The translations under genes were made by a program, and so were the position numbers. From Moniliella sp. 'wahieum' (taxonomy: Eukaryota), in contig RSEE01000014.1 of NCBI GenBank assembly GCA_003971905.1, forward strand, positions 62,001 through 126,000: a stretch of DNA of 64,000 bases, read 5' to 3'. Position 1 is the stretch's first letter. The number at the start of each line of letters is the position of its first letter. Positions 7,806 through 61,905 of this stretch are shown here, in pieces. Under the pieces are notes generated by a model. The model worked only from the letters and a program-made list of their open reading frames with translations. It was not told the origin of the DNA and made no database searches.

Positions 7806-8065
7806 GAAGTCGCTTTGCAGTGGGGAGCGTGGGCGCGTGGGCGCGGAGCGTGGAAGTGGGTTTGGATTCGTGGGTTCTTGGCGTCCAACACCTATCCCAA
7901 ACCCGGCTCTACGGTGCACTTGAGCTTCCCTCGTGCAAGATCGAGGCTCTTTCATGTGTTGCTTGTTGCTTTTTCTGCTGACCAAGTGGACAAGCTGCCA
8001 CTCTTCAACCTCCAAACTTCACTCCAGTCACTGAACCGCCCCCAGTCCACCTCCGAGGCGGGTAG

Positions 8066-48549: not shown

Positions 48550-51500
48550 ATGCTGCCCCCCACCTCCGACGACCTTGCCTCGCTCTTCGAGGCCCAGGCC
48601 GCCCGCACCCCCTCCCTCCCTGCCCTCGAGGACCAGGACACAGACACGCCCTCACCTATGCCCAGCTCGAGCAAGAGACCCGCCTGTGGGCCCAAGAGCT
48701 GCGTGCCAAGCACGTCGGCACCGACGACCTAGTGGGCATCCTCATGCCGCGCTGCGCCACCTACGTCGTCGCCGCCCTCGCTGCCCTCCGCGCGGGTGGG
48801 GCCTTCTTGGTACTCGAGATGGCGTACCCTGACAACCTGCTCCACAACGTCCTCGCTGATGCCCAGCCCAAGGTTGTCCTCACTCTCGCTTCCCAGCGCT
48901 CCCGCCTGCCTGCCTCCATCCCTACCATCGAGATGGACACCACGCGTCCCACCGCCTCTGTCGAGGCAGAGCCCGTGCCGCTGCCCCCTCGCTCGCCCGA
49001 TCAATTGGCCTTTGTCTCATACTCCTCGGGTACCACGGGCCAGCCCAAGGGGATTGCCAACCCCCACAAAGCGGCCACCGGGTCCTATGCACTGCGCTTT
49101 GCTCTCTCCGACCTGCACCCGGGCGATCGGGTCGCATGCAACGTCTTTCTCATCTGGGAAATGCTCCGTCCTCTTTTGCGCGGCGCGACGACCGTCGTCG
49201 TGCCTGACCTGCACTCGTACGACCCCGAGGGCCTGCTCACCTTTCTTCAAACCCGCAAGATCACCGAAACACTCATGACGCCCACCTTGCTCGCAACCTT
49301 GCTCGCTCGGCACGACGATGTGCTGGCCTTGCCAGACTTGCGCACTCTCTGGCTCAACGGCGAGGTTGTGCCGCTTGACTTGGCCCGCCGCGCGTCCCGC
49401 GCCCTTCCCCATGTTCGCCTGCTCAATCTCTACTCGATTTCCGAGACCCATGAGGTGGCTGCGGGTGACATTGGTGTTCTTCTCACATTGCCAGAGATCC
49501 AGGGGCGCAGTGTGTGTCCCGTGGGACCGTTGCTGGACCCGGAGCATGCGCTGCTCCTGCAGCCTGACAGTTTGGTCCCCGTGCCCCCGGGCGAAGCGGG
49601 GGAACTGTGCGTGACAGGCCCGCTTTTGGCCCGCGGGTACCTCAACCTTCCTCTTCAGACCGAACGCGCCTTTGTGCCTTCCCCGGCAATGGGGAACGCA
49701 TGTACCGCACCGGCGACTTGGCGCGTCTGTTGCCTTCGGGCGCTCTCGAAATCACAGGCCGGATGGGCGGGATGATCAAGACGCGCGGGTACACGGTACA
49801 CCCCTCGGCGGTGCAGGCGGCGGTAGTCAAGTACCTTGCTGTCCAGGCATGCGCAGTGGTGGGGCATGGCGAAGGGTTGGAGAAGCGCTTGGTGGCCTAC
49901 ATTGTTCCCGATCCGTCGCGCGAGGAAAAAGTGGTGATTGAGCCGTCGGGCCACAGCCCGAGCGCCAACAAGCTGCTCCAGCCTCACTTGGCACAGTATA
50001 TGATCCCTACGCTGTGGGTCCAGGTCCCTTCCTTGCCCACCCACGGCGTCAGCGGTAAGATTGATCTTTCCTCGCTGCCTTCGCCACCTGTCACCCGCCC
50101 TCCACTCGGCCCTCTACGCGCCCCACCTCCCCCCGCGGCGGCACAGCGCTGGGCGCCCAGCCGGTTAAGGAAAGCACCTTGGTGGAACTGTGGTCGATCT
50201 TGCTAGGCGTCCCGGCTAGCACCGTCTTGGCTGGCCACTCGTTCTTTGAACTAGGCGGACACTCGCTCTGTTGGCCGATTTGGCAGGGAGACTGAGCAAG
50301 CAATTTGGGTTCACTGTCCCGCTGGGTGCGTTGGCCGCAGACCCATCCTTGACGGGCCACCTGACTGCCATCACCGCCGCGCGCGACGGGCACCTTGCCG
50401 AGTTGCAGGCCGACCTGCCTAAAATTATGCAAGCCGACGCTGTCTTGGCCCCGGATGTGCGTCGCTTGTCGGAAAAGCCGTCGGGCACCCATATTCTCCT
50501 CACGGGCTCGACGGGCTACCTGGGTGCGTTTTTTTTGCACGCTCTTGCCGCTCATACTGCTGTCGACGTGAAGATCATCTGCCTGATCCGGTTCCCGTAC
50601 CCTACCGAGAACTGCACTCCGGCTGGCTTGGCCCGCATCCGCCCAACCTGAACGACCTGGGTCTGTGGTCAGACGCGTTGCTGGACAAGATTGAAGTGGT
50701 GCCGGGTAACTTGCCTCAGGCCCAATTCGGGCTTTCGGACGAAGCGTTTGTTGCGCTGGCCAAACGGGTGGGCACGGTGGTGCATGCAGCGGCGGCGGTC
50801 AACTTGGTGTACCCGTATGCTGCCTTGCGCGCACCCAACGTGGGTGGTACACGGGAAATTCTGCGTCTGTGCAGTATTGGTGGCGCGGCACTGCACCACA
50901 TCTCGACCAATGGTGCTCTCACCCTGGGCCAGTGGAGCGAAACCTCCCACTTGACCCTGGAGCAAGCGCTGGCCATTCCAGATGGGTATGGGCAGAGCAA
51001 ATGGGTAGCGGAACAGTTGGTTCGGCAAGCGCAAGCGCGTGGCTTGCCGGCCTACATTTACCGTCCAGGGACCGTCGGGCAGTTGCGATACGGGGGCCAG
51101 CAACCCGTACGATATGCTGGATGCTGTGCTGGTGGAAGCATTGAGGATGGGCGTTGCGCCCACCCTGCCCGATTGGCGGATCGAGTTGACCCCGGTCAAC
51201 TATGTGGCTGAGGCAGTTGCGACGCTAGCCACGACCGAGGTGAGCGTGAGCGAGCGCTTGCCTGTCTACCATCTCGCCAACCCTGCACCTCCCTTGGCCG
51301 ACGATGTGTTTACTACGCTCGCGCACTTGGGCTACCCTACCACCCGCCTCGCCTTTGACGACTGGCGCACCGCCTGGTTCGCCACCTTGCCTCCGCCCGA
51401 AGAAGGCGATCCTAATCACCAAGTACCTTTCCCAGCCTCGATCTTGCGCAGCGGCTTCCCTTCGCCCGAAGCGTTGGCCCACCAACCCATCTTGCACGAC

Positions 51501-52426
51501 GAAGCGACGCAGCGGTCCTGGTACCGTTGCTAGGACCTCGGCCTGCGCTCGACGCCGCGCTGTGGCGGACGTATGCGCGTCACTTTTATGCGCGGGGCTG
51601 GTTGCCGCATGGTCCGGCGCCGCTCAGTGAGGCAGAAGCGCGCCTGGCAGCCCAAGCGGCTGCGAAGAGCGCTCGTGCTCGCCGTGGTCGGTTGGCAGGC
51701 AAGGTCGCTGGATTACCGGTGCTTCGTCAGGGATTGGCGCGGCGGTGGCAGAGGCCTTGGTGGCAGAAGGCGCGCGGGTGTCGTTGGCGGCCCGTCGGGC
51801 TGCCACGCTCAGCGCGTTGAAGCAAGAGTTGGAAACGCGCCATGCGGGCGCAGAGGTGCACGTTGTCCGACCGATGTCACGTCGCAAAAGGGGTGGAGGC
51901 GTTGGTGCAGTCGACGGAGCAGGAGCTTGGACCAGTGGACATCTTGGTATCGTGTGCGGGCGTGATGTACTTTACCATGATGGCCAATGTGCAGATGGAG
52001 CAGTGGGAGCAAACGGTCGATGTCAACTGTAAGGGGTTACTGTACTGTCTGGGAGCCTGTCTACCTGGCATGCTCCAACACCGGGGCCATGTGGTTGCCA
52101 TCTCGTCCGATGCAGGTCGCAAGACGTTTGCTGGTCTCGGCGTCTACTCAGCAAGCAAGTTCTTTGTCGAATCTACACTGCAGGCGCTCCGGCTCGAGAC
52201 GGCCAACTCGGGATTACGCGTCACCTCCATCCAGCCTGGCAATGTCGCGACCGACTTGCTGGGCATGTCGACGGACCAGCAAGCGCTCGAAGCGTACGGT
52301 ACGCCCTCGGGAGCCAAGGTGCTCGATGCGAGCGATGTGGCCCAGGCCATCGTCTATGCCCTGGTCCAGCCCGAACATGTGGCCGTGAATGAGGTGCTGG
52401 TCGAGCCGCGGGAGGAACCGATCTGA
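48550..52426 (+). CDS. NRPS-like A-T-R-R enzyme (ATRR/NPS10-type glycine betaine reductase); apparently intronless, frameshifted
   Basis: A domain: LASLFEAQAARTP, YSSGTTGQPKGIANPH, DRVACNVFLIWEMLRPLLRG, LNGE, YSISETHE, GELCV.GP.LARGY, YRTGDL, SGKID. T domain: FFELGGHSL. Thioester reductase: LLTGSTGYLG, HAAAAVN, GYGQSKWVAE, YRPG. SDR: TGASSGIG, SCAGVMY, YSASK, IQPGNVAT, ends AVNEVLVEPREEPI*. Confidence 0.9.
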
Positions 52427-52981
52427 GTCGGTCGAGAGGGCGGAGGCCGGGAGGGGGGGCAAGACGCAAGCCGATGGGATGGCGCCGATAAGCCATGCTT
52501 TCTTTATCTCTCTACCAAGCAGCCAGTCCTTTGAATTGTATTATGTGCCTATCATATGCTAGTCAACTCAATAGTCCACTTGATTCCCGAGATAGAAACA
52601 AGAACAAACCAATAAAATGACCGGGGGGGGAAGCGCCTCCTGTCTAGCCTACTACCCTGCCACGCAGAGACAAACAGTGGTCGCAAGTCCCCTGAACGAA
52701 GCGGAGCGTGGAGCTCCCATCTCCCTGAAATGTGAATCGGAAAGGGCAATTGCATCGGCAGATCTTCGTCCGGCCGGGCACGGGGCGTGGGACGTCGGGG
52801 GGAAAGGGAGCATAGTGGGAAGGAGGAGGAATAGACTGGGTTCTGCTCGCTGATGAGAATGGGGGATGGGTGGAGGAGTGTGGACCACGAAACCTACTGC
52901 TTCGCTTCAAGAGCAAGTGGCCGGCGTAGCGTATGGTTTTGGTACGCAAGATACGGCGCCTCAGGGCCTCACTGGCTCACC

Positions 52982-54505
52982 TCAGTAGTCAAACCGGTCC
53001 GGGAAGAGCAGCGGGGCAAGCAAGCTCCACGTATACAACCCCACGCACACCCAAGAACTCACGATCCGCATCCACATCGACGTGCTGGAGCGCCCAATCA
53101 AGGCTACGGGGCCTTCCTCGGAATCCGACTCGTCCGCCTCGCTCAACTTGACCCACCGCCAGTCAGTCAACAGCATGGCCGTGTAGCAAGCGGCCATGGC
53201 AAACCAAGTGGAAAAAGGCATAGTTGTACCTTCCCGTTCCGCTCATCGTCGCCTTCGTCGCTGTTTCCATTGGCCATAGCTTCTTCCTCCCTCCGCCTCG
53301 GCCTCGTCCAGCGCCGACTGTGGGATCGCACCAGCTTCCACCGCCGCCTGCAACGCTTGGATCCGCATCGTCGTCCGTCCAGCCGATGGTGGCTCGGTAA
53401 TCACCCCCCACGCGCTTCGCATCGCTGCTGGCCAGAGGACCATAGCCCTCGGCGCCGTCGCATACGACGCTACTTCGTACTTGTTGCGTTCGGCGCGTGC
53501 CTTGCCGACCAAGGTGTTGGACTGGGTCGCAGCTCGACTGGTGCTATATGCAATGGCCAAGAAGGTGAACAAGGCCCGACCACCGCGGTGGTCGTCTTAA
53601 CGATCCACCGCGGCGCGCGCTAATCGGGTTGCACTTCTCGTCGTCGCGGTTGATCACGGCCGAGGCGGTGAGGTAGGAGCAGTAGGCAGCCACCATGGAG
53701 GCTTGGGCCAGACCCGAGCGCGGGTTGGCCGTCTGCACAGCAGAGAAATGGAAAGGAAAGTAAGGCAAGGATGAGGATGAGGTTGAGGTGATCAAGCTTT
53801 GGTTGAGATGGCATCCTTCCGAAGCAAAGAACCCATACAGCACCCCGTCACACTGAGCGCCACCACGTACATGCCCACCGTGCTGCCAATCAGGGTGAAC
53901 TTCCAAAAGTCCGATTCGGTGCGTTCCCAGTTATCCAAGCACGTCTCCGACCACGTGTAGACAAAGTCGATCAGAAAGTCCACCACGATAAAGCAAGTGG
54001 CGAGCAACAAGGCGGGGTAGGTGCCCCAAACACGAAAAAGCCATTGGGAACAAAAACATACCCACCACCAACACGGCCCATAACAGTACCTTGGGACCCC
54101 ACCAACCATTCTGCAACGCAGCACGACGCGACCGCGTATCCTTGACCCCAATCAACGCCGCGCCCAGCACAAGGTGAAGCAGCACCAACGCAAAGTGATG
54201 CGGTGCACGGCCAACAGGCCATAGCACCGGTCCCGGTCCGCATGGCGTCCATCCGGATCCAACTGTAGGACCACTGCTCTAGTTTGCGCACTGCGAGGGG
54301 CGTGCGGCTCACCAGGCCAGCAGTGCATACGAGACAGAAGAGCGCATAACCCACGCGGGTTGCAATGCTGCTCTGGCAGTTGCACGACTTGAACAGCGCC
54401 GGGCGGCAGTGGAGGTGCAGAAGCACGCGGCTGCGCTTAGACACGACGTGCCAGCCCAGCCAGCGCGCCTCCGCCCAGCAACGGAAGCGATAACAGCGCG
54501 CCCAT
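52982..54505 (-). CDS. TMS1: Serine incorporator / TDE family membrane protein (SERINC)
   Basis: MGALLSLPLLGG; FKSCNCQSSIATRVGYA; LQNGWWGPKV; NPRSGLAQASMVAAYCSYLTASAV; YNYAFFH; MLLTDW; WMRIVSSWVC..LY.WSLLAPLLFPDRF. Confidence 0.93.
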
Positions 54506-54952
54506 TGCCCTGGACGCAGATGGAGACGGTGGCGGCGCTCGTCCGAGGCGGTGGCGGCGGCGGCAGCAACGAGGCGGCAACCCTAACGAGAGCAGGGGAG
54601 GGTTGTGAAATGTTCACGCTCCTGCGCCCGCAGAGCTATGACGACATGGCCATCAAACAGCAACGTTTTAACCGACTGTGATATGCTAAAGTGCAGTCGA
54701 ATGGTCATGGATGCTTGGCTTGGCCTAGCGCCAGAGTTGGGCGCTAAAAGCGGCGATGACCACCTTCAATCAAGGGTCAGCGGCGCACAGGGCAGACCAA
54801 AAAGAATAGAGCCAAATGCGGTCCCTAACAAGGAGCGGGGAGAGATGCGCGCAAACAAGGAAGGAGAGGAGAGAGGAGGAGGTAGCCAGCGATACCTGCA
54901 TGCTTGCGATGAGGGGCCCAACATGAGCCACAATCCCAAAGCAAAGGTGGAG

Positions 54953-56232
54953 CTAGATGGCAAGGCCCAGTTGGTGAACGAGGTAGGTGCATAGGTGGTA
55001 GGATGCACTGGCATTAGTAGTTCGCGTGGTAAGGCGCGCTAACTGCAGAAGGGTAGAGAAGCGTCAGTACGAGTAGCCAGGGAGGTGGGCGAGAGCAGGA
55101 GGAGGAAAAAGAAAAGGAATACCATATGGGGGCGGAGGAGGAGAGGGAAACCAAGTAAGAAGCAATACGTACTCCGATTGCCGATTGAGTTCCAGACGCA
55201 ACAGGCACCCCACATTGCCCAGGCGAGAAGTATGCAGGACCCCAGCCCCGACCAAGTTGGCTGGGTTCTTGTCGATCCCTGGCAGTTGAGCAAAGCCAGC
55301 ACGGGAGAGGATCCGACGCGCACGCAATAGAGCGTTCCGACCGCTTGGTCATGCTCCCGTGCTGCTGCAGGGTCCATGACCGCAGGTGCAATGGGGAAGA
55401 TGCGCTGGGCTTCGCATGGGTTGGCCGAACCAATCTGGTGCCAGCGAGCGAAAAAGTCTGAAGCACCCAACGGACCCGCCACGGGCTCTAGGAAGCGCGA
55501 AAGCGGTAGCGGGGGGGAGGAAGAGGTGTACGCGCTTCCCCTCGGCGACAGAAGAGGCAGGGGAAGGTTGTATGGTGGGGTGAACAAAACGCACTTCCAG
55601 CACCAAGGGAGCTTGTCCCATTTGCCCACTTGCATAAGGCGCCGCGCACTCTACGCGCACTACGTGGCCCAGTTGCGTTTCTGGAGCCAAGGCCAAGGGC
55701 ATATCATCAAGGGCGGGTAAGCTAGAGCGGACCGAGAGCGGCGCGGAGCTGGAGTGACCTGTGGGAGAAGGGGAGGTGTCAGGCACGGAGCGAGCGTGTA
55801 CGTTAACCGAAAATTCCTCTAAACACGCCGAGGGGAGCTTGTTGCCATAGAAGATAGCCACGTCCCCTGACCCCGATCGATATTGCGAAAGGCGGTTTGA
55901 GCCCAATCTGGATGGTCTCAGACTCGTACAACACCCCCTCGCCTCGGTCGAGCAATGCGGAGTACCATGCGGGGGATATGGCTGGCGTCAATGCTCCGGT
56001 GGGCGTGGCGATTGAAGCTGGTGCCAGCGCCTGAGGCGCCGCGGGCGGCATGACATGGACAGCTGCCATGGGTGGAAGCACGTGGAAAAAGAGGGAGGGA
56101 GCGGGGCGACTGGCTGTGCAAGTCGCGAGAAAACGAGAAGAGGGACAGATAGGTCAAATCCAGATGATAGGCAAGCCGGGCGGACGGGGGAGGGATTGGG
56201 AACTGGCTCATTGGGGGCGTGGCGGGGCCCAT
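54953..56232 (-). CDS. Stand-alone AP-2 alpha-adaptin appendage (ear) domain protein lacking the Adaptin_N trunk
   Basis: WYSALLDRGEGVLYESETIQIGLK; GDVAIFYGNK; SRFLEPV...DFFARWHQIG...EAQRIFP; IDKNPANLVGAGVLHTS..GNVGCLLRLELN; after an intron (~55043-55172) LARLTTRTT...LGLAI-TAG at 54953. Only a short Pro-rich exon lies upstream. Confidence 0.8.
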
Positions 56233-56778
56233 CCTAGCAAATGCTCTGGCTGAGGCCGAGGTGTGCTGAAGCTGAGGTAGGCTGAAGTAGGCTCAAGCTG
56301 AGTGAGGGTAAGGCGCGCTGAGGCAGGTTGCAAGAATATGCAACTCGCACAATTGATAAGATTGTACGTGACTCGGTTTTCCCTATCTTGCCAAGTATTG
56401 CTGTTCAAGCTTCAAGGTTCAAGGTTCAAGCTTCAAGAGGAACGTCGCATCCGTCGAGCGGGTCGCCACGTTGCTCCACTGCCCCCCGCCGGCCTAGCGC
56501 GGCGCTGCTGACACTGCCGCCATGCCCAGCGGAGGGAGCTAAGGTTTGCACCCTTCGGCTGCATTCGAGACGCGGCCAGGCGTCGATTTGATTCGCTTCC
56601 GCCCGTGTCGTTCCGCCGTGCGGCTTCTTCCCCGCCGCCGCGGGCCCACGAGGAAGCTCGGCTTAGCTCAGCCGGGCCGGGGCGCTGTGGGCGGCTCGGG
56701 CTCAGCCCATCTGGTGAGCTGGGCGTGTCGAGCGACATCTTCCTCCTCGTGCCCACCAACCACCTCCCCTTGTCCATC

Positions 56779-57365
56779 ATGGCCCGTCGTGCGCGCAGCT
56801 GCTTTGTGTGTGGAAAGCTCGGCCACCTCGCCTCGGAGTGCACCAGCCCCGAGCGCGTGTGCTTCAACTGTGGCAACCTGGGCCACGAGAGCAACGCTTG
56901 CCCCGAGCCCCACTCGGCCACCCAGCGCCAGTGCTACCGCTGTGGCCAGTCGGGCCACATCAAGGCCGACTGCCCCAACGAGCCCGTCCAAATTGAGCAG
57001 ACCCCCGCCGCTGCTGGCAAGGCCTCCACCAACACCGAGACGCCTGCCCCCCGCCCCGGCCAAGACCAAGGCATGCTACAACTGTGGCTCCCACGACCAC
57101 TTGGCCCGCGATGCCCTGAGCCGGCGTCGGGCGAGCCCGTGCCCGCGCCCAACACTTCGCGCGTGCGCTGCCGTAACTGCTCGGAGCGCGGCCACTTTGC
57201 CCGTGACTGCCCCAACGACAAGAAGTGCTACCGCTGCCAGGGCACTGGTCACGTACGTTGACTTGTTTCTCGTTGTGTGCTTCTTTGGGTCTTGCTAACG
57301 TGTTATCCTTGTCTTTCACCTCCTCCCCAGATCGGCGTGACTGCCCCAACGAGAAGGCGGAGTAA
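56779..57365 (+). CDS. GIS2: CCHC zinc-knuckle RNA-binding protein, Gis2/CNBP family (6 knuckles)
   Basis: CFVCGKLGHLASEC, CFNCGNLGHESNAC, CYRCGQSGHIKADC, CYNCGSHDHLARD, CRNCSERGHFARDC, CYRCQGTGH|I.RDC. Intron 57253-57330. Confidence 0.88.
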
Positions 57366-58806
57366 GTGCCAGCGCATGCGTCTTTGTCCCCTGTTGGACA
57401 AGGCCTTTGATGTCTGTTAGCCTATGCTCGTTGTTGTTGCTTGGTTCGGTGTGGACTTGATATCCTATCACCTTCCCTCGCCTCCCCCACCCCCACCCCC
57501 ACTCCCCATCCTCTTTGTTCGTTTTGTCTCACTATAGACCAGACGTTCCTTCTGCAAACTGCAGATCTCCATGCTCTAGCGGTCTGCCTCAAGACTTCAC
57601 GGAAAGGCAGAGTGCATCCATAGGGAACACCATGGCCCAGTCATGAGTCGGGAACTTCGCCGGTTAGTTACGGGCGCTCCGGTTAGCCCCGCGCGCTGAG
57701 CCCCGCATGTCGCGGGCATCTTATCCAAACATGCGTCAGTCCGTTAGACTAGCGAGAGAGAGCCAGAAGGAACATATCCATGCCGCGGATCCTTTCGCGG
57801 AGAGCCACGGGCGAACCGGACTTACAGTACGAAGTTTCGTATCTGCGGCCTCCGGTCTTGGAAGAACAGACCGCGCTTCGCCCCTTACTACTACTGTAGA
57901 TTCCTCATCAGTTCTGTTTATACCTGTCATAAGGCACTTGGGGTGGTTCCTTCTGTATATAAGCAGCCATGTCTATGGCTTGCTAGCTGTGGTTCTTGTC
58001 GACCTGTCCCTGTCCCTGGTCTCCCCGACTTTCCATTCCTCTCTCGCCTTCCAGCTCCTAGTACTACCCTTGCAAATTTACGATTCACGTCGATTACACT
58101 GCAAGCCGCGGTTACTCTCAGTAGGGCTTGCTCTTCTTTAGGACTCCGTCTGATTTCGCCTACTGCAGCGCGTCGAGTTTAGTGACGCTGCGGGGAACAG
58201 TGTTACCTGTTACCCCCCCGGAGCTCGTGGACCCCTTCGACTGCTCTGACGACCTACGTACGGGGGTCCTACCGGCTACCCCGGAGGTCCTGAGCTGTAG
58301 CCTTTGGACGCAGGCAGTCACCCAAACTAGAGGGTCTCTCCTTCGCCTCCACACCCCGCTCGGTTCAATCAGGATCTGAAGCAGGACCTAACGTGCGCAC
58401 CTCCGATTGGCCGTCCAAGGGTTTGAACGGGCATCGTCTAGAACGAGGTGGCGGATGGTGAGAGAGGGGAGCCAGGGCACGACGCTCTGGGAGTACAGGG
58501 GAACACAGCTGTGGCGGAGCCTAATGTAATGGCGTTATCCTTCTCCGCCCACCTTCTACGTCCTGCTGCTGCTCTAGCACTCGTGCTTCACCCACCGCAC
58601 CCCTCACCCAGAGTCAGCAGCAATCGACAGCACTGGGTGTCTGCCGATTCTTATATTCCCTCTATCTCGTGCATCGTGACCACGGTGGCCACATAAAGAT
58701 CAGCAGGTCCCATCAGGCCCATCAAGCCTGTGCAATGTTCATTTGGACACGCCACGTGCTACATCCATCCCATCCAGGCCTTGCTCCGTCCCCCCCGCCC
58801 CGCAAA

Positions 58807-59765
58807 TCAGCGCCGCTTCTTGGTCCCGGTTGCCTTCTTGACCGCGGTCGCGTGAGCCTTGCCCTGGTTCCGGCCATCCTCAATCGCCTCCTTGAACAAG
58901 GACCCAATGTCACCCGATTGCATCGCGGCCATCTTGGCGTTCATAGAGGCCTGCTGCTGCTCCAGCTCCTTGAGCGACTCGGGGTCCAAATTGGCCTGTG
59001 AGGGATAACAGACAAGCACCGAAAAAATAGTATCAGTCAGTCACTCAGTCGCATTCTCAGCCACCCAGGGTCACAGGGGACTCAATCAACGTACCACCAG
59101 CTTGGGCATAAGGAAGACCATGGCACCACCAAAGATGGCGATCAGGACCATGGGCGACTTGAGCATGCCCATCAGGTCAAACGCTTGCGGTTCGGTAAAG
59201 AACTCGAGCTTGGCACTGGGCTGGAGTGTGAAGGGCACAGGCAACGGTGCCTGGCTCAGGGCACCTTCAATGCCGCCCGGGATGTTGGGGGTGAGTCGGA
59301 TCTTGACCAGTTGGCTGGAAGCGCGCGCCGTGCGCGCGGCAGCGGCAGCAGCGGCGGCAGCAGCAGCGGGAGACTTGGGGTCCGCAGTGGGTCGACAGCA
59401 GGCACAGGCGCCTCGGTGGGGGCAGGGTTGACGTCGACACGGTAGGTGTTGAAGGCGTGCCAGCGGGACTGAAGGGAGAGAAGGTACGTGCCTGGCGCCA
59501 CGTCGGGGAAGATGAACTTGCCATCTTGACGAATGAGGGTGTTGTAGTGGGAAGGCAGGGCAGCGAGCTCGACGGGGGTCATGGTCGAGGCAGGCGCATT
59601 GGCGCTGGGTTTGCGAACGAGGTGGACCTGGGCGTCGTTGCCGAGCAACGCAAGGTCTTGCAGGTGGGCACCCACTTGAACTTGCCCGCTGACAGCAACA
59701 GGCGATGCGGCAGCGAGAGCAGTGCACGCGCTCAGCAGCACAGCCAAGGCAGAGAGGAGACGCAT
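58807..59765 (-). CDS. EMC7: ER membrane protein complex subunit 7 (DUF2012 beta-sandwich plus TM)
   Basis: Signal peptide MRLLSALAVLLSACTALA; LIRQDGKFIFPDVAPGTYLLSL...FNTYRVDV; FFTEPQAFDLMGMLKSPMVLIAIFGGAMVFLMPKL; intron; NLDPESLKELEQQQ. Confidence 0.85.
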
Positions 59766-61905
59766 GGTGCCTGCCCAGCCAGTGCGTTCGTCGTCGCCGG
59801 CGGTGGATGGATGCCGATGGATGCCCGTGTGTCGGCCAGATGGGGGTCGCCCCAATTCCGCAGCGCCACGACAGCAGCGCTGGCGCGAGCGCTGTTACGT
59901 AACAGGCGTCGGTCCAGGCAGGGCCCCAGGCACAAGGCGTCCTTGACTGGTTTTTCTCACATTTCAATCTGGTGGGGGTGGGCTGGGCAGGATGTGCGGC
60001 CTGCCTGGCCTGGCCTGGCCTGTATCTGCTGCTACCAGACAAAAAGGCACGAGCCATTCGCGCTGCCGTTCGTTCGGTGCGGAGCGCGCTGGATGCGCGC
60101 AGCGCTCGCCCGGCAACCGCCGGCGTCGCCTGCCTGAGGTAAGCGTGGGTTTGCGCTTCGCCTCGTGCTCGTCTAGGCCAGCCTTCGGCACGTGTGCCGG
60201 CAGGGCCGGGTGGGACGCCGAGGGACGATATACTACGATGGCTTGGCGTTTCTTGCGATTGGCCGCGGCCGTTGCCGCAGCCAGTGGGTGGAGGGGGGTC
60301 GGAAGGTGTTGGACGCTGGGCGTTGGGCGCGGGCGACGGACTAGGGTGGCTTGCTGTCAGGCGGCGGAGTCCGTGGAGTCGCTTGCCGCGGGCGAGAACG
60401 TGCGCGGGAGATGGCGCAGACGCAGGCAGGGGGGCACAGAGGACATGCAACCTACTCTGACGTCATAAGGCCGCGCGCCCAGGCTAGGTCCTGCTGTGCG
60501 CTGCCGTGCCCGCTGCTTGCAAAAATCGCAACGATCCTACAAGTAACGCGCGACGTCATCGCGACGCCAAGTGCTCTCCCTTGCCCTGCACCCGACCCGG
60601 CGCGATGGACGCAGCGACGGGGCGGCTATAGGCTGGGGACGGGCGGCCGGCGAGGGTCTGAAGGGTACCATCGATACCAGAGTCACCTACTCACCCACTA
60701 GCCACTGCGCATTATACGCGCCAACTCCTGGCTTGTCTCTCGCTCAGGACAGTGTATTAATACGCGCTGCGTTATATACGCGTCTCGTTGCCGTCCTGCA
60801 AGCTGCACCGTTCAGGCACGTCTATGTTAGTCCCGAGCTGCAAGCCTGGCGTTGTGCCGGGTGCTTCTCAACTCCGCCCCGCCTGCTATCGCATCGGCGA
60901 CGCCACGGACGCCACGGACGGCACGCCAATGTCTCTTTGGCTCAAACCAGCGGCTTGGGGCGGGAGGAGAGGTACTGGCTGGTCCTCTGATGCCTGATGG
61001 ACCAAGTGTCGTTAGCAACACTCGACTGTGCCCCCCCCAACCGGCTTCTTTCGAGACGGTGCCCTGTGGCTTCTCCATAATGTAACCGCTAGACAAAGTT
61101 ATTCATATCAGAGTTTGAGGAAGAGTCTCGACCCTTTTGCTGCTTTGCGGTAATTGTCTCCTCAGCCTCTCTCACAGCACGGCCTCATTTTCTGTAGTAA
61201 TACTGTCTCATCGTTCCCCCTCCCAAGTACCCACATACAACGCGAAGGGTGAAAATTAGGGACGTTTGACGCTGCTACGCGGCTGTTGGCCGCGATGGGC
61301 CTCAGCGCCGAGAACGAGGAGTCAAAAGGGGGGACTCAGTGAAGAGGGGCAGTACGATGGAGGGGATATCGCGCTGTGCGCATGTGCGCGTCCGCAGCCG
61401 GTCTGCGTCACACTCTCGCAGGTTTGACCAAGCGGAGAACTTGGGAATGCAATAGCGTAGAGGTCTAGACCATTGGTTGTTGAGACGCGTCCGTGCCCTT
61501 GGATGCAGAGAGACATCAGCTTCAGCAGGCTTCAGCCCCTTCCCAGCACGGGGGTGCGTGCGGCTATGGTCGGCTATACTGTTCTTCTCGATGGCAACGC
61601 GATCACAGCGCTAGATTGTGTTGCATAGCGTCGATGCTCTGTCTGAGTGTGTCTGCGGTGGCGCACGAGCTCCGCACACCCCCACAGTACAGATAGATAG
61701 ATTTAGGGTACACACTCTCCCCATACCATCTCCCTTTCTGTGGCAACGTGCACCAGCATGAGCAAACCAGCTACCCCGAACCACCTACAACACGAACAAC
61801 AATGGTCTGTGCTGCGTGTTTTTCGTATATATACCCTCCCTCCCCACCTCAACTTGATTTGTTTCCCCCCTCTTTCCTTGGCCACCACAGCAAGACTACT
61901 ATAGG

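Follow-up and report, generated by a model that had tools for sequence, protein, structure and literature searches.

Whether the appendage (ear) domain of the AP-2 alpha subunit can exist as a gene of its own, and what an ear without a trunk would do, are the questions raised by this locus. The alpha ear is commonly seen as a hub that works through its tether to membrane-bound AP-2, and entry into the AP-2 core is mediated by the trunk. In the window, the whole stretch of 64,000 nucleotides analysed here, an AP-2 alpha appendage is encoded on the minus strand at 54953-56069, with one intron and a product of ~330 aa. Such a gene is very probably real, trunk-less and functional in its lineage, as judged from its copies, relatives and selection.

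Organization of the ear-only gene

The features of the locus are as follows (P0001 and P0002 are stored orthologous proteins).

56779..57420, plus strand: divergent zinc-knuckle gene (GIS2/CNBP-like, PF00098); end coordinate approximate
56110..56232, minus strand: upstream stretch, once read as leader exon plus intron; frame open in the window, without conservation
55173..56069, minus strand: coding exon 1, with ATG at 56069, a ~34-aa Pro/Ala-rich leader, the sandwich subdomain and most of the platform
55968..56069, minus strand: leader, short, weakly conserved and of low model confidence (pLDDT <50, residues 1-28 of P0001)
55495..55967, minus strand: sandwich subdomain (Alpha_adaptinC2-like); PF02883 precomputed on P0001 and P0002
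54953..55494, minus strand: platform subdomain (Alpha_adaptin_C), with DFFARW, GCLLRLE and ARLTTRT; W840 equivalent at 55443-55441
55292..55362, minus strand: family-specific extended helix, AR[DE]HDQxVGNALLRARRxLSRAGF
near 55900, 55871, 55513 and 55337, and a fifth near 55175, minus strand: frame breaks in exon 1 of the window
55043..55172, minus strand: phase-0 intron, GTACGT...ACTGAC...CAG, 130 nt
54953..55042, minus strand: coding exon 2, 29 aa plus stop; stop aligned in all three copies

The identification as an alpha-adaptin appendage with sandwich and platform subdomains, made in the preliminary description from the letters, was confirmed by profile, alignment and fold. PF02296 matched in two frames of the window (E 1.7e-11 and 8e-5), and both subdomains of the mouse alpha ear were covered in an alignment with the orthologue P0001 (E 1e-18). 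P0001 was modelled, without its last exon, from an alignment of 46 rows (mean pLDDT 67). The model consists of a beta sandwich, the helices of the platform and a further helix of 24 residues (248-271), and its eight best PDB matches were all alpha ears (E from 3e-15 to 2e-13; TM by query, about 0.46). All three platform motifs that had been pointed out were found in the window gene, and so were the 3' intron (55172-55043) and a normal stop, ending at 54953. The same intron is present in the two other copies of the gene, on contigs C129 and C106 (lengths, 130 and 160 nt), and the last exon behind it holds one platform strand. A 54 bp loop is missing from the window but present in C129 and C106, and the C129 product is ~18 aa longer than that of the window. 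The leader may be regarded as hinge-like by its composition.

The start of the gene had been described differently, with a leader exon MGPATPPMSQFPIPP beginning at 56232. The corresponding join over a 76-nt intron (56185-56110) is in frame in the window, but its GTCCGC donor is missing from the 94% identical haplotype C129, and no similar sequence was detected in the diverged copy C106. The conserved start is the second ATG, at 56069. Conservation sets in sharply at CCCATGGC, and the products begin with MAAVHV in the window and C129, MAATNV in C106 and MAAVVN in P0001. The exon first proposed is probably wrong, and the stretch 56110-56232 is probably 5' UTR or promoter. The divergent neighbour, for which the name GIS2 was the choice of the preliminary description, was confirmed as a zinc-knuckle gene, and its start codon (56779) lies 710 bp from the ear ATG.

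Copies of the ear and the trunk in the genome

The assembly amounts to 69.5 Mb in 223 contigs. A total of five PF02296 matches were identified, full-length domains on C5 and C27 and weaker ones on C14 (the contig of the window), C129 and C106. C5 and C27 each encode a complete alpha-adaptin with trunk, hinge and ear (DNA 94% identical), and their canonical ears score 136 and 128 bits against PF02296, with the pocket kept; a separate full-length APL3, which had been named as a thing to look for, is thus present at both loci. Among the 51 Adaptin_N matches in the genome, none falls on C14, C129 or C106, in agreement with the trunk-less layout first noticed. The search of the genome for alpha trunks gave eight matches, of which only C5 (100%) and C27 (94%) are alpha-like; the remaining ones are at 26-34%, apart from one 49-residue piece at 49%, and no orphan alpha trunk was found among the eight.

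The zinc-knuckle gene adjoins all three ear-only copies. C129 is collinear with the window over about 21 kb at 92-94%. In C106 only three pieces of the window are matched, namely the ear gene at 71%, the zinc-knuckle gene at 83% and, inverted, a segment of 460 bp at 78%. Since an EH-domain gene shows the same pattern, a 94% pair plus a diverged third copy, C129 was read as the second haplotype and C106 as a homeologue.

Genes in 92-94% pairs, some with a diverged third copy, were seen repeatedly (C5/C27, C14/C129/C106, C17/C65/C14, C41/C42), a pattern suggestive of a hybrid or polyploid, heterozygous genome. The ear-only gene is retained in both diverged sets, and the full-length alpha was found in one pair only.

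Some neighbouring sequences were also recorded. The segment at 57672-58133 of the window (L029:6290-6756) is 78% conserved in C106, where it lies inverted on the opposite side of the zinc-knuckle gene, and contains no long ORF; an Rfam search of 56000-58600 gave no match at E <= 1, and the segment may be a promoter, a small gene or an RNA that has escaped annotation. A 147-bp TG...CA element is inserted just upstream of the ear gene only in the C129 haplotype (L028:5567-5713, G000:C129), with the empty site near 56240 of the window. It holds a tRNA-like body (Rfam tRNA, 51 bits), the anticodon being called CCA in four of six copies and CCC in two. The element has 41 matches in the genome, and 5-bp target duplications were found in all six copies checked; on C172, where two copies are separated by 6.5 kb, each has its own target duplication, and the two therefore do not make up one element. 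The element resembles the solo LTRs of Helenus, reported from Pucciniales and a few Agaricomycetes (PMC10886601). In the window at 49500-54650 and 59250-59900, indels of 1-2 nt interrupt every one of the genes for Serinc, EMC7, a reductase and a short-chain dehydrogenase (the last two labelled by us from the ORFs), and gene calls in this assembly are therefore unreliable.

Family members and purifying selection

Among the 19 near-length matches to the longest open stretch of C129, four are at 62-72% identity and 15 at 32-39%. The four, P0001-P0004, are Logan proteins (the cluster of P0001 has four members) and provide the ear-only orthologues that had been sought; they are gene calls for which no DNA context is visible; each of them continues into the intron, and P0003 and P0004 begin inside the sandwich. 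Longer proteins, from candidates capped at 8000, gave no match above 37% over the ear among the 70 matches listed (a single one reached 59%, for 19% of the query). In a profile search, 1.84 billion representatives yielded 272 matches and no further member, with 441 and 436 bits for the query members and 97 bits for the next. Only generic adaptin-ear clusters were found in the ESM Atlas, with recognition under threshold, and in JGI metagenomes, searched for the loci of relatives, none of 405 pattern matches was confirmed and a degenerate DNA pattern gave 0 matches. The short matches P0005-P0019 were rejected as ear-only proteins, since hinge remnants or a start within the domain mark them as fragments of canonical genes; P0009 clusters with a 960-aa alpha. 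The family is known from one small lineage only.

The dN/dS ratio, calculated with codons near breaks and exon 2 excluded, was 0.16 for the window versus C106 (95% interval 0.10-0.23, 210 codons) and 0.14 for C129 versus C106 (0.10-0.22, 216 codons), with dS about 0.9 in both comparisons. By subdomain, the values against C106 were 0.05-0.06 for the platform and 0.21-0.23 for the sandwich. Between the haplotypes, window and C129, the ratio was 0.41 (0.18-0.92). Two intact full-length alpha loci, three ear-only copies, orthologues and purifying selection altogether support the early proposal of a duplicated and diverged ear-only gene beside a full-length APL3.

Frame breaks and the integrity of the locus

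In the window the ear reading is broken by five 1-2 nt indels. Counted against protein references, the breaks of the ear-only copies number 4, 3 (one a TGA, in C129) and 5, i.e., 12 in 2.8 kb, versus 1 and 1, i.e., 2 in 2.2 kb, in the canonical ears. The frameshifts fit an unpolished assembly, and in an assembly so rich in indels the gene itself might be an artefact, or half of a split alpha gene. This is highly improbable. The trunk-less layout is repeated on three contigs and intact alpha loci lie elsewhere, which makes a split gene or a misjoin, both raised in the preliminary description, unlikely; no orphan alpha trunk is left over, and P0001, which comes from unrelated assemblies, starts with the same MAAV.

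A decaying duplicate is the other explanation of the breaks: the allele pair C14/C129 would be degenerating and the function carried by C106. A shortening of a G-run common to both haplotypes, the TGA in C129, the deletion of 54 bp in the window, the replacement of E729 by Ala (see below), the ratio of 0.41, the mobile insert upstream in C129 and the substitutions between haplotypes (3.1% in the ear exon, as in non-coding DNA and more than in any other of the 11 coding segments compared) all point in this direction, and the pair indeed looks less constrained. The rate of frame-breaking indels between haplotypes in the ear exon (4.5/kb), however, is within the ranges of eight neighbouring coding segments (4.2-14.3/kb) and of canonical alpha (2.5-4.7/kb), no break is common to all three copies, C106 carries five private breaks as well, and sequencing errors drive dN/dS towards 1. 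Decay of the pair is judged improbable.

Binding sites and the family-specific helix

The positions F836, F837, R839, W840, E849, R905 and E907 (mouse ear numbering) are kept in all seven rows of the family; the three copies of this genome, the only rows covering R916 and R920, keep these two as well. F836, F837, E849, R905, E907, R916 and R920 are taken here to be residues of the platform pocket. For the sandwich, E718, G725, K727, E729, F740, G742 and Q782 are presumed to be functional positions, with G725, K727, E729, F740 and Q782 as the presumed WxxF site. The equivalents of E718, G725, K727, F740, G742 and Q782 are kept in the window apart from assembly breaks. The WxxF positions are unchanged in C106 and P0002; P0001 has Gln for K727, and both the window and C129 have Ala for E729. 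In the canonical ear, the platform and the sandwich site are both retained. Binding of DPF/FxDxF motifs has been assigned to the platform around W840 and that of WxxF motifs to the sandwich (PMC5694535; PMC3794858), with W840 as the centre of the platform site (PMC5694535); residue-level mutant data, sought in the literature, were found for W840 only.

Candidate ligands are encoded in the same genome. At four EH-domain (Ede1/Eps15-like) loci, 23 DPF/FxDxF motifs were counted on the coding strand versus two on the antisense strand. A NECAP-like protein (L076:1100-1700, G000:C41) appears to end in a tail rich in Gly and Pro and, in the frames read, where frameshifts blur the end, to lack the WxxF-acidic motif that mammalian NECAP has. 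The EH-locus motifs and the NECAP-like end without WxxF agree with the platform as the working face.

The ear-only proteins are about 44% identical with the canonical ear of the lineage, and differ from it by four insertions and, beside the pocket, by Leu for P908 and His for K/R841. The extra helix is about 12 residues longer than its counterpart in canonical ears. Its motif HDQ.VGN was found in seven stored proteins, all ear-only, and the helix HDQxVGNALLRARR is nearly invariant among proteins that are about 60% identical overall. The canonical alpha ear of the lineage has a 12-residue insertion in the sandwich of its own, absent from other sampled fungi (L026:4900-5000; P0096, P0097).

Origin of the gene

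The closest named matches of the canonical platform are from Meira (63%) and Exobasidium (62%), with two further relatives at 81% and 78%; the organism therefore belongs to an under-sampled basidiomycete lineage. In a tree of 53 rows, from which the alveolate protein KAE was left out, the seven ear-only rows group together in a single clade (100/100), whose stem is long (1.61 changes per column) and whose sister group is the canonical ears of the lineage itself (94/92, the bootstrap not fully settled). A position outside Basidiomycota was not rejected by the AU test (p-AU 0.325), and the placement of the ear-only clade is not firm. An insertion motif after the sandwich cysteine, picked after inspection of the alignment, occurs in nine of the stored ear proteins (304 in total), each of them either ear-only or a canonical one of the lineage.

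Gene calls of other fungal alpha-adaptins (e.g., P0005, P0010, P0012 and P0130) enter intron sequence at the codon of the ear-only intron, so that these genes appear to share its position, and the full-length alpha genes of the lineage read through that codon without an intron. The ear-only gene, having kept an intron lost from the full-length gene, would therefore be a DNA-level duplicate of the 3' end older than the intron loss. It would not be a retrocopy of the present-day alpha mRNA.

Predicted role of a free ear

A soluble appendage-only protein of ~330-350 aa may thus have arisen by duplication of the 3' end of AP-2 alpha, an old event restricted to this lineage. Without the trunk, this protein would be excluded from the AP-2 core, the membrane and the cargo. 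It could reach endocytic sites via the DPF/FxDxF motifs of Ede1/Eps15-like proteins, bound through the W840 pocket, and act there as an extra ear in trans, its family-specific helix recruiting a further partner or a second copy of the ear. The reading that we favour, at a probability of about 0.45, is a positive linker recruited in this way, because with only ~60% identity between the proteins the extra helix hardly varies, and such conservation is more than a pure decoy would need. A counterpoint is the intact canonical ear, beside which nothing needs replacing.

The same pocket would also suit a natural decoy or buffer, which would compete with AP-2 by occupying DPF/FxDxF motifs and so determine when, or above which threshold, endocytic sites assemble. 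Isolated ears inhibit endocytosis when overexpressed, the pocket is the same as that of the intact canonical ear, the platform is the most constrained part and no membrane-targeting part is visible; the near-invariant helix and the long stem (1.61), however, suggest a gained contact rather than plain mimicry, and a decoy appears doubtful. That the ear has acquired a new function outside AP-2 endocytosis, with another coat, compartment or ligand motif, is less probable still: the low identity to the canonical ear, the four insertions, the exchanges at P908 and K/R841 near the pocket and the NECAP-like protein lacking a terminal WxxF in the frames read would be in its favour, but the core platform positions are all kept and the closest structures are alpha ears.

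The linker reading may be extended to AP-2 itself. Dikarya lack the beta ear (PMC5338921), and the beta-ear family PF09066 gave 0 matches in this genome in a search in which the controls were silent as well. Only tentatively, a minimal free alpha ear might dock by its invariant extra helix onto AP-2 or a second copy, and either restore a second ear to the beta-ear-less fungal AP-2 or serve as an endogenous, tunable inhibitor like the dominant-negative ear of the laboratory.

An ear-alone gene under purifying selection beside an intact alpha implies that the ear can be of use without its tether. In such fungi, with no beta ear on their AP-2, scaffolding and titration of the DPF/FxDxF network by free ears could be told apart cleanly.

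Comparison with known systems

The AP-2 alpha appendage (mouse AP2A2 ear, PDB 1B9K/1W80/2VJ0; fungal Apl3) shares with the ear-only protein the fold of sandwich plus platform, the W840-centred pocket and the flanking R/E positions. Unlike the alpha subunit (Apl3), with its Adaptin_N trunk and long hinge, the ear-only protein has neither; it adds four insertions, one of them the conserved long helix, and is encoded by a separate gene beside an intact alpha. GGA proteins are monomeric adaptors that carry an adaptin ear outside a heterotetramer; their ear is of the gamma type, lacks a platform and is accompanied by VHS and GAT domains. The ear-only protein likewise stands outside a heterotetramer, but has the alpha platform, no VHS or GAT and no room for N-terminal domains.

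No fungal ear-only alpha protein was found in a literature search that missed most subscription journals, in line with the preliminary description, which knew of none; the kind of protein, however, is not new, the alveolate KAE being a precedent (PMC10105704). More than 97% of the proteins with adaptin ear domains have Adaptin_N, and Plasmodium KIC4 and KIC5 are stated to have such ears without it (bioRxiv 10.1101/2022.12.15.520209). KIC4 has VHS-GAT domains in the same source, whereas only about 34 residues precede the ear here. KAE of Toxoplasma and other alveolates is a duplicated alpha ear without the AP-2 alpha trunk and binds Eps15L (PMC10105704); a conserved alpha ear without an alpha trunk is the feature shared with the present gene. 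KAE is larger, contains coiled-coil motifs and binds through the WxxF site of the sandwich (PMC10105704), whereas here there is the ear only, with a leader of ~34 aa and the platform as the more constrained part. KAE is also paired with a degenerate AP-2 alpha ear (PMC10105704), in contrast to the intact canonical ear of this lineage. The two appear to be of independent origin and, if the present reading is true, alpha ears without a trunk would have arisen a second time, probably independently of the alveolate KAE.
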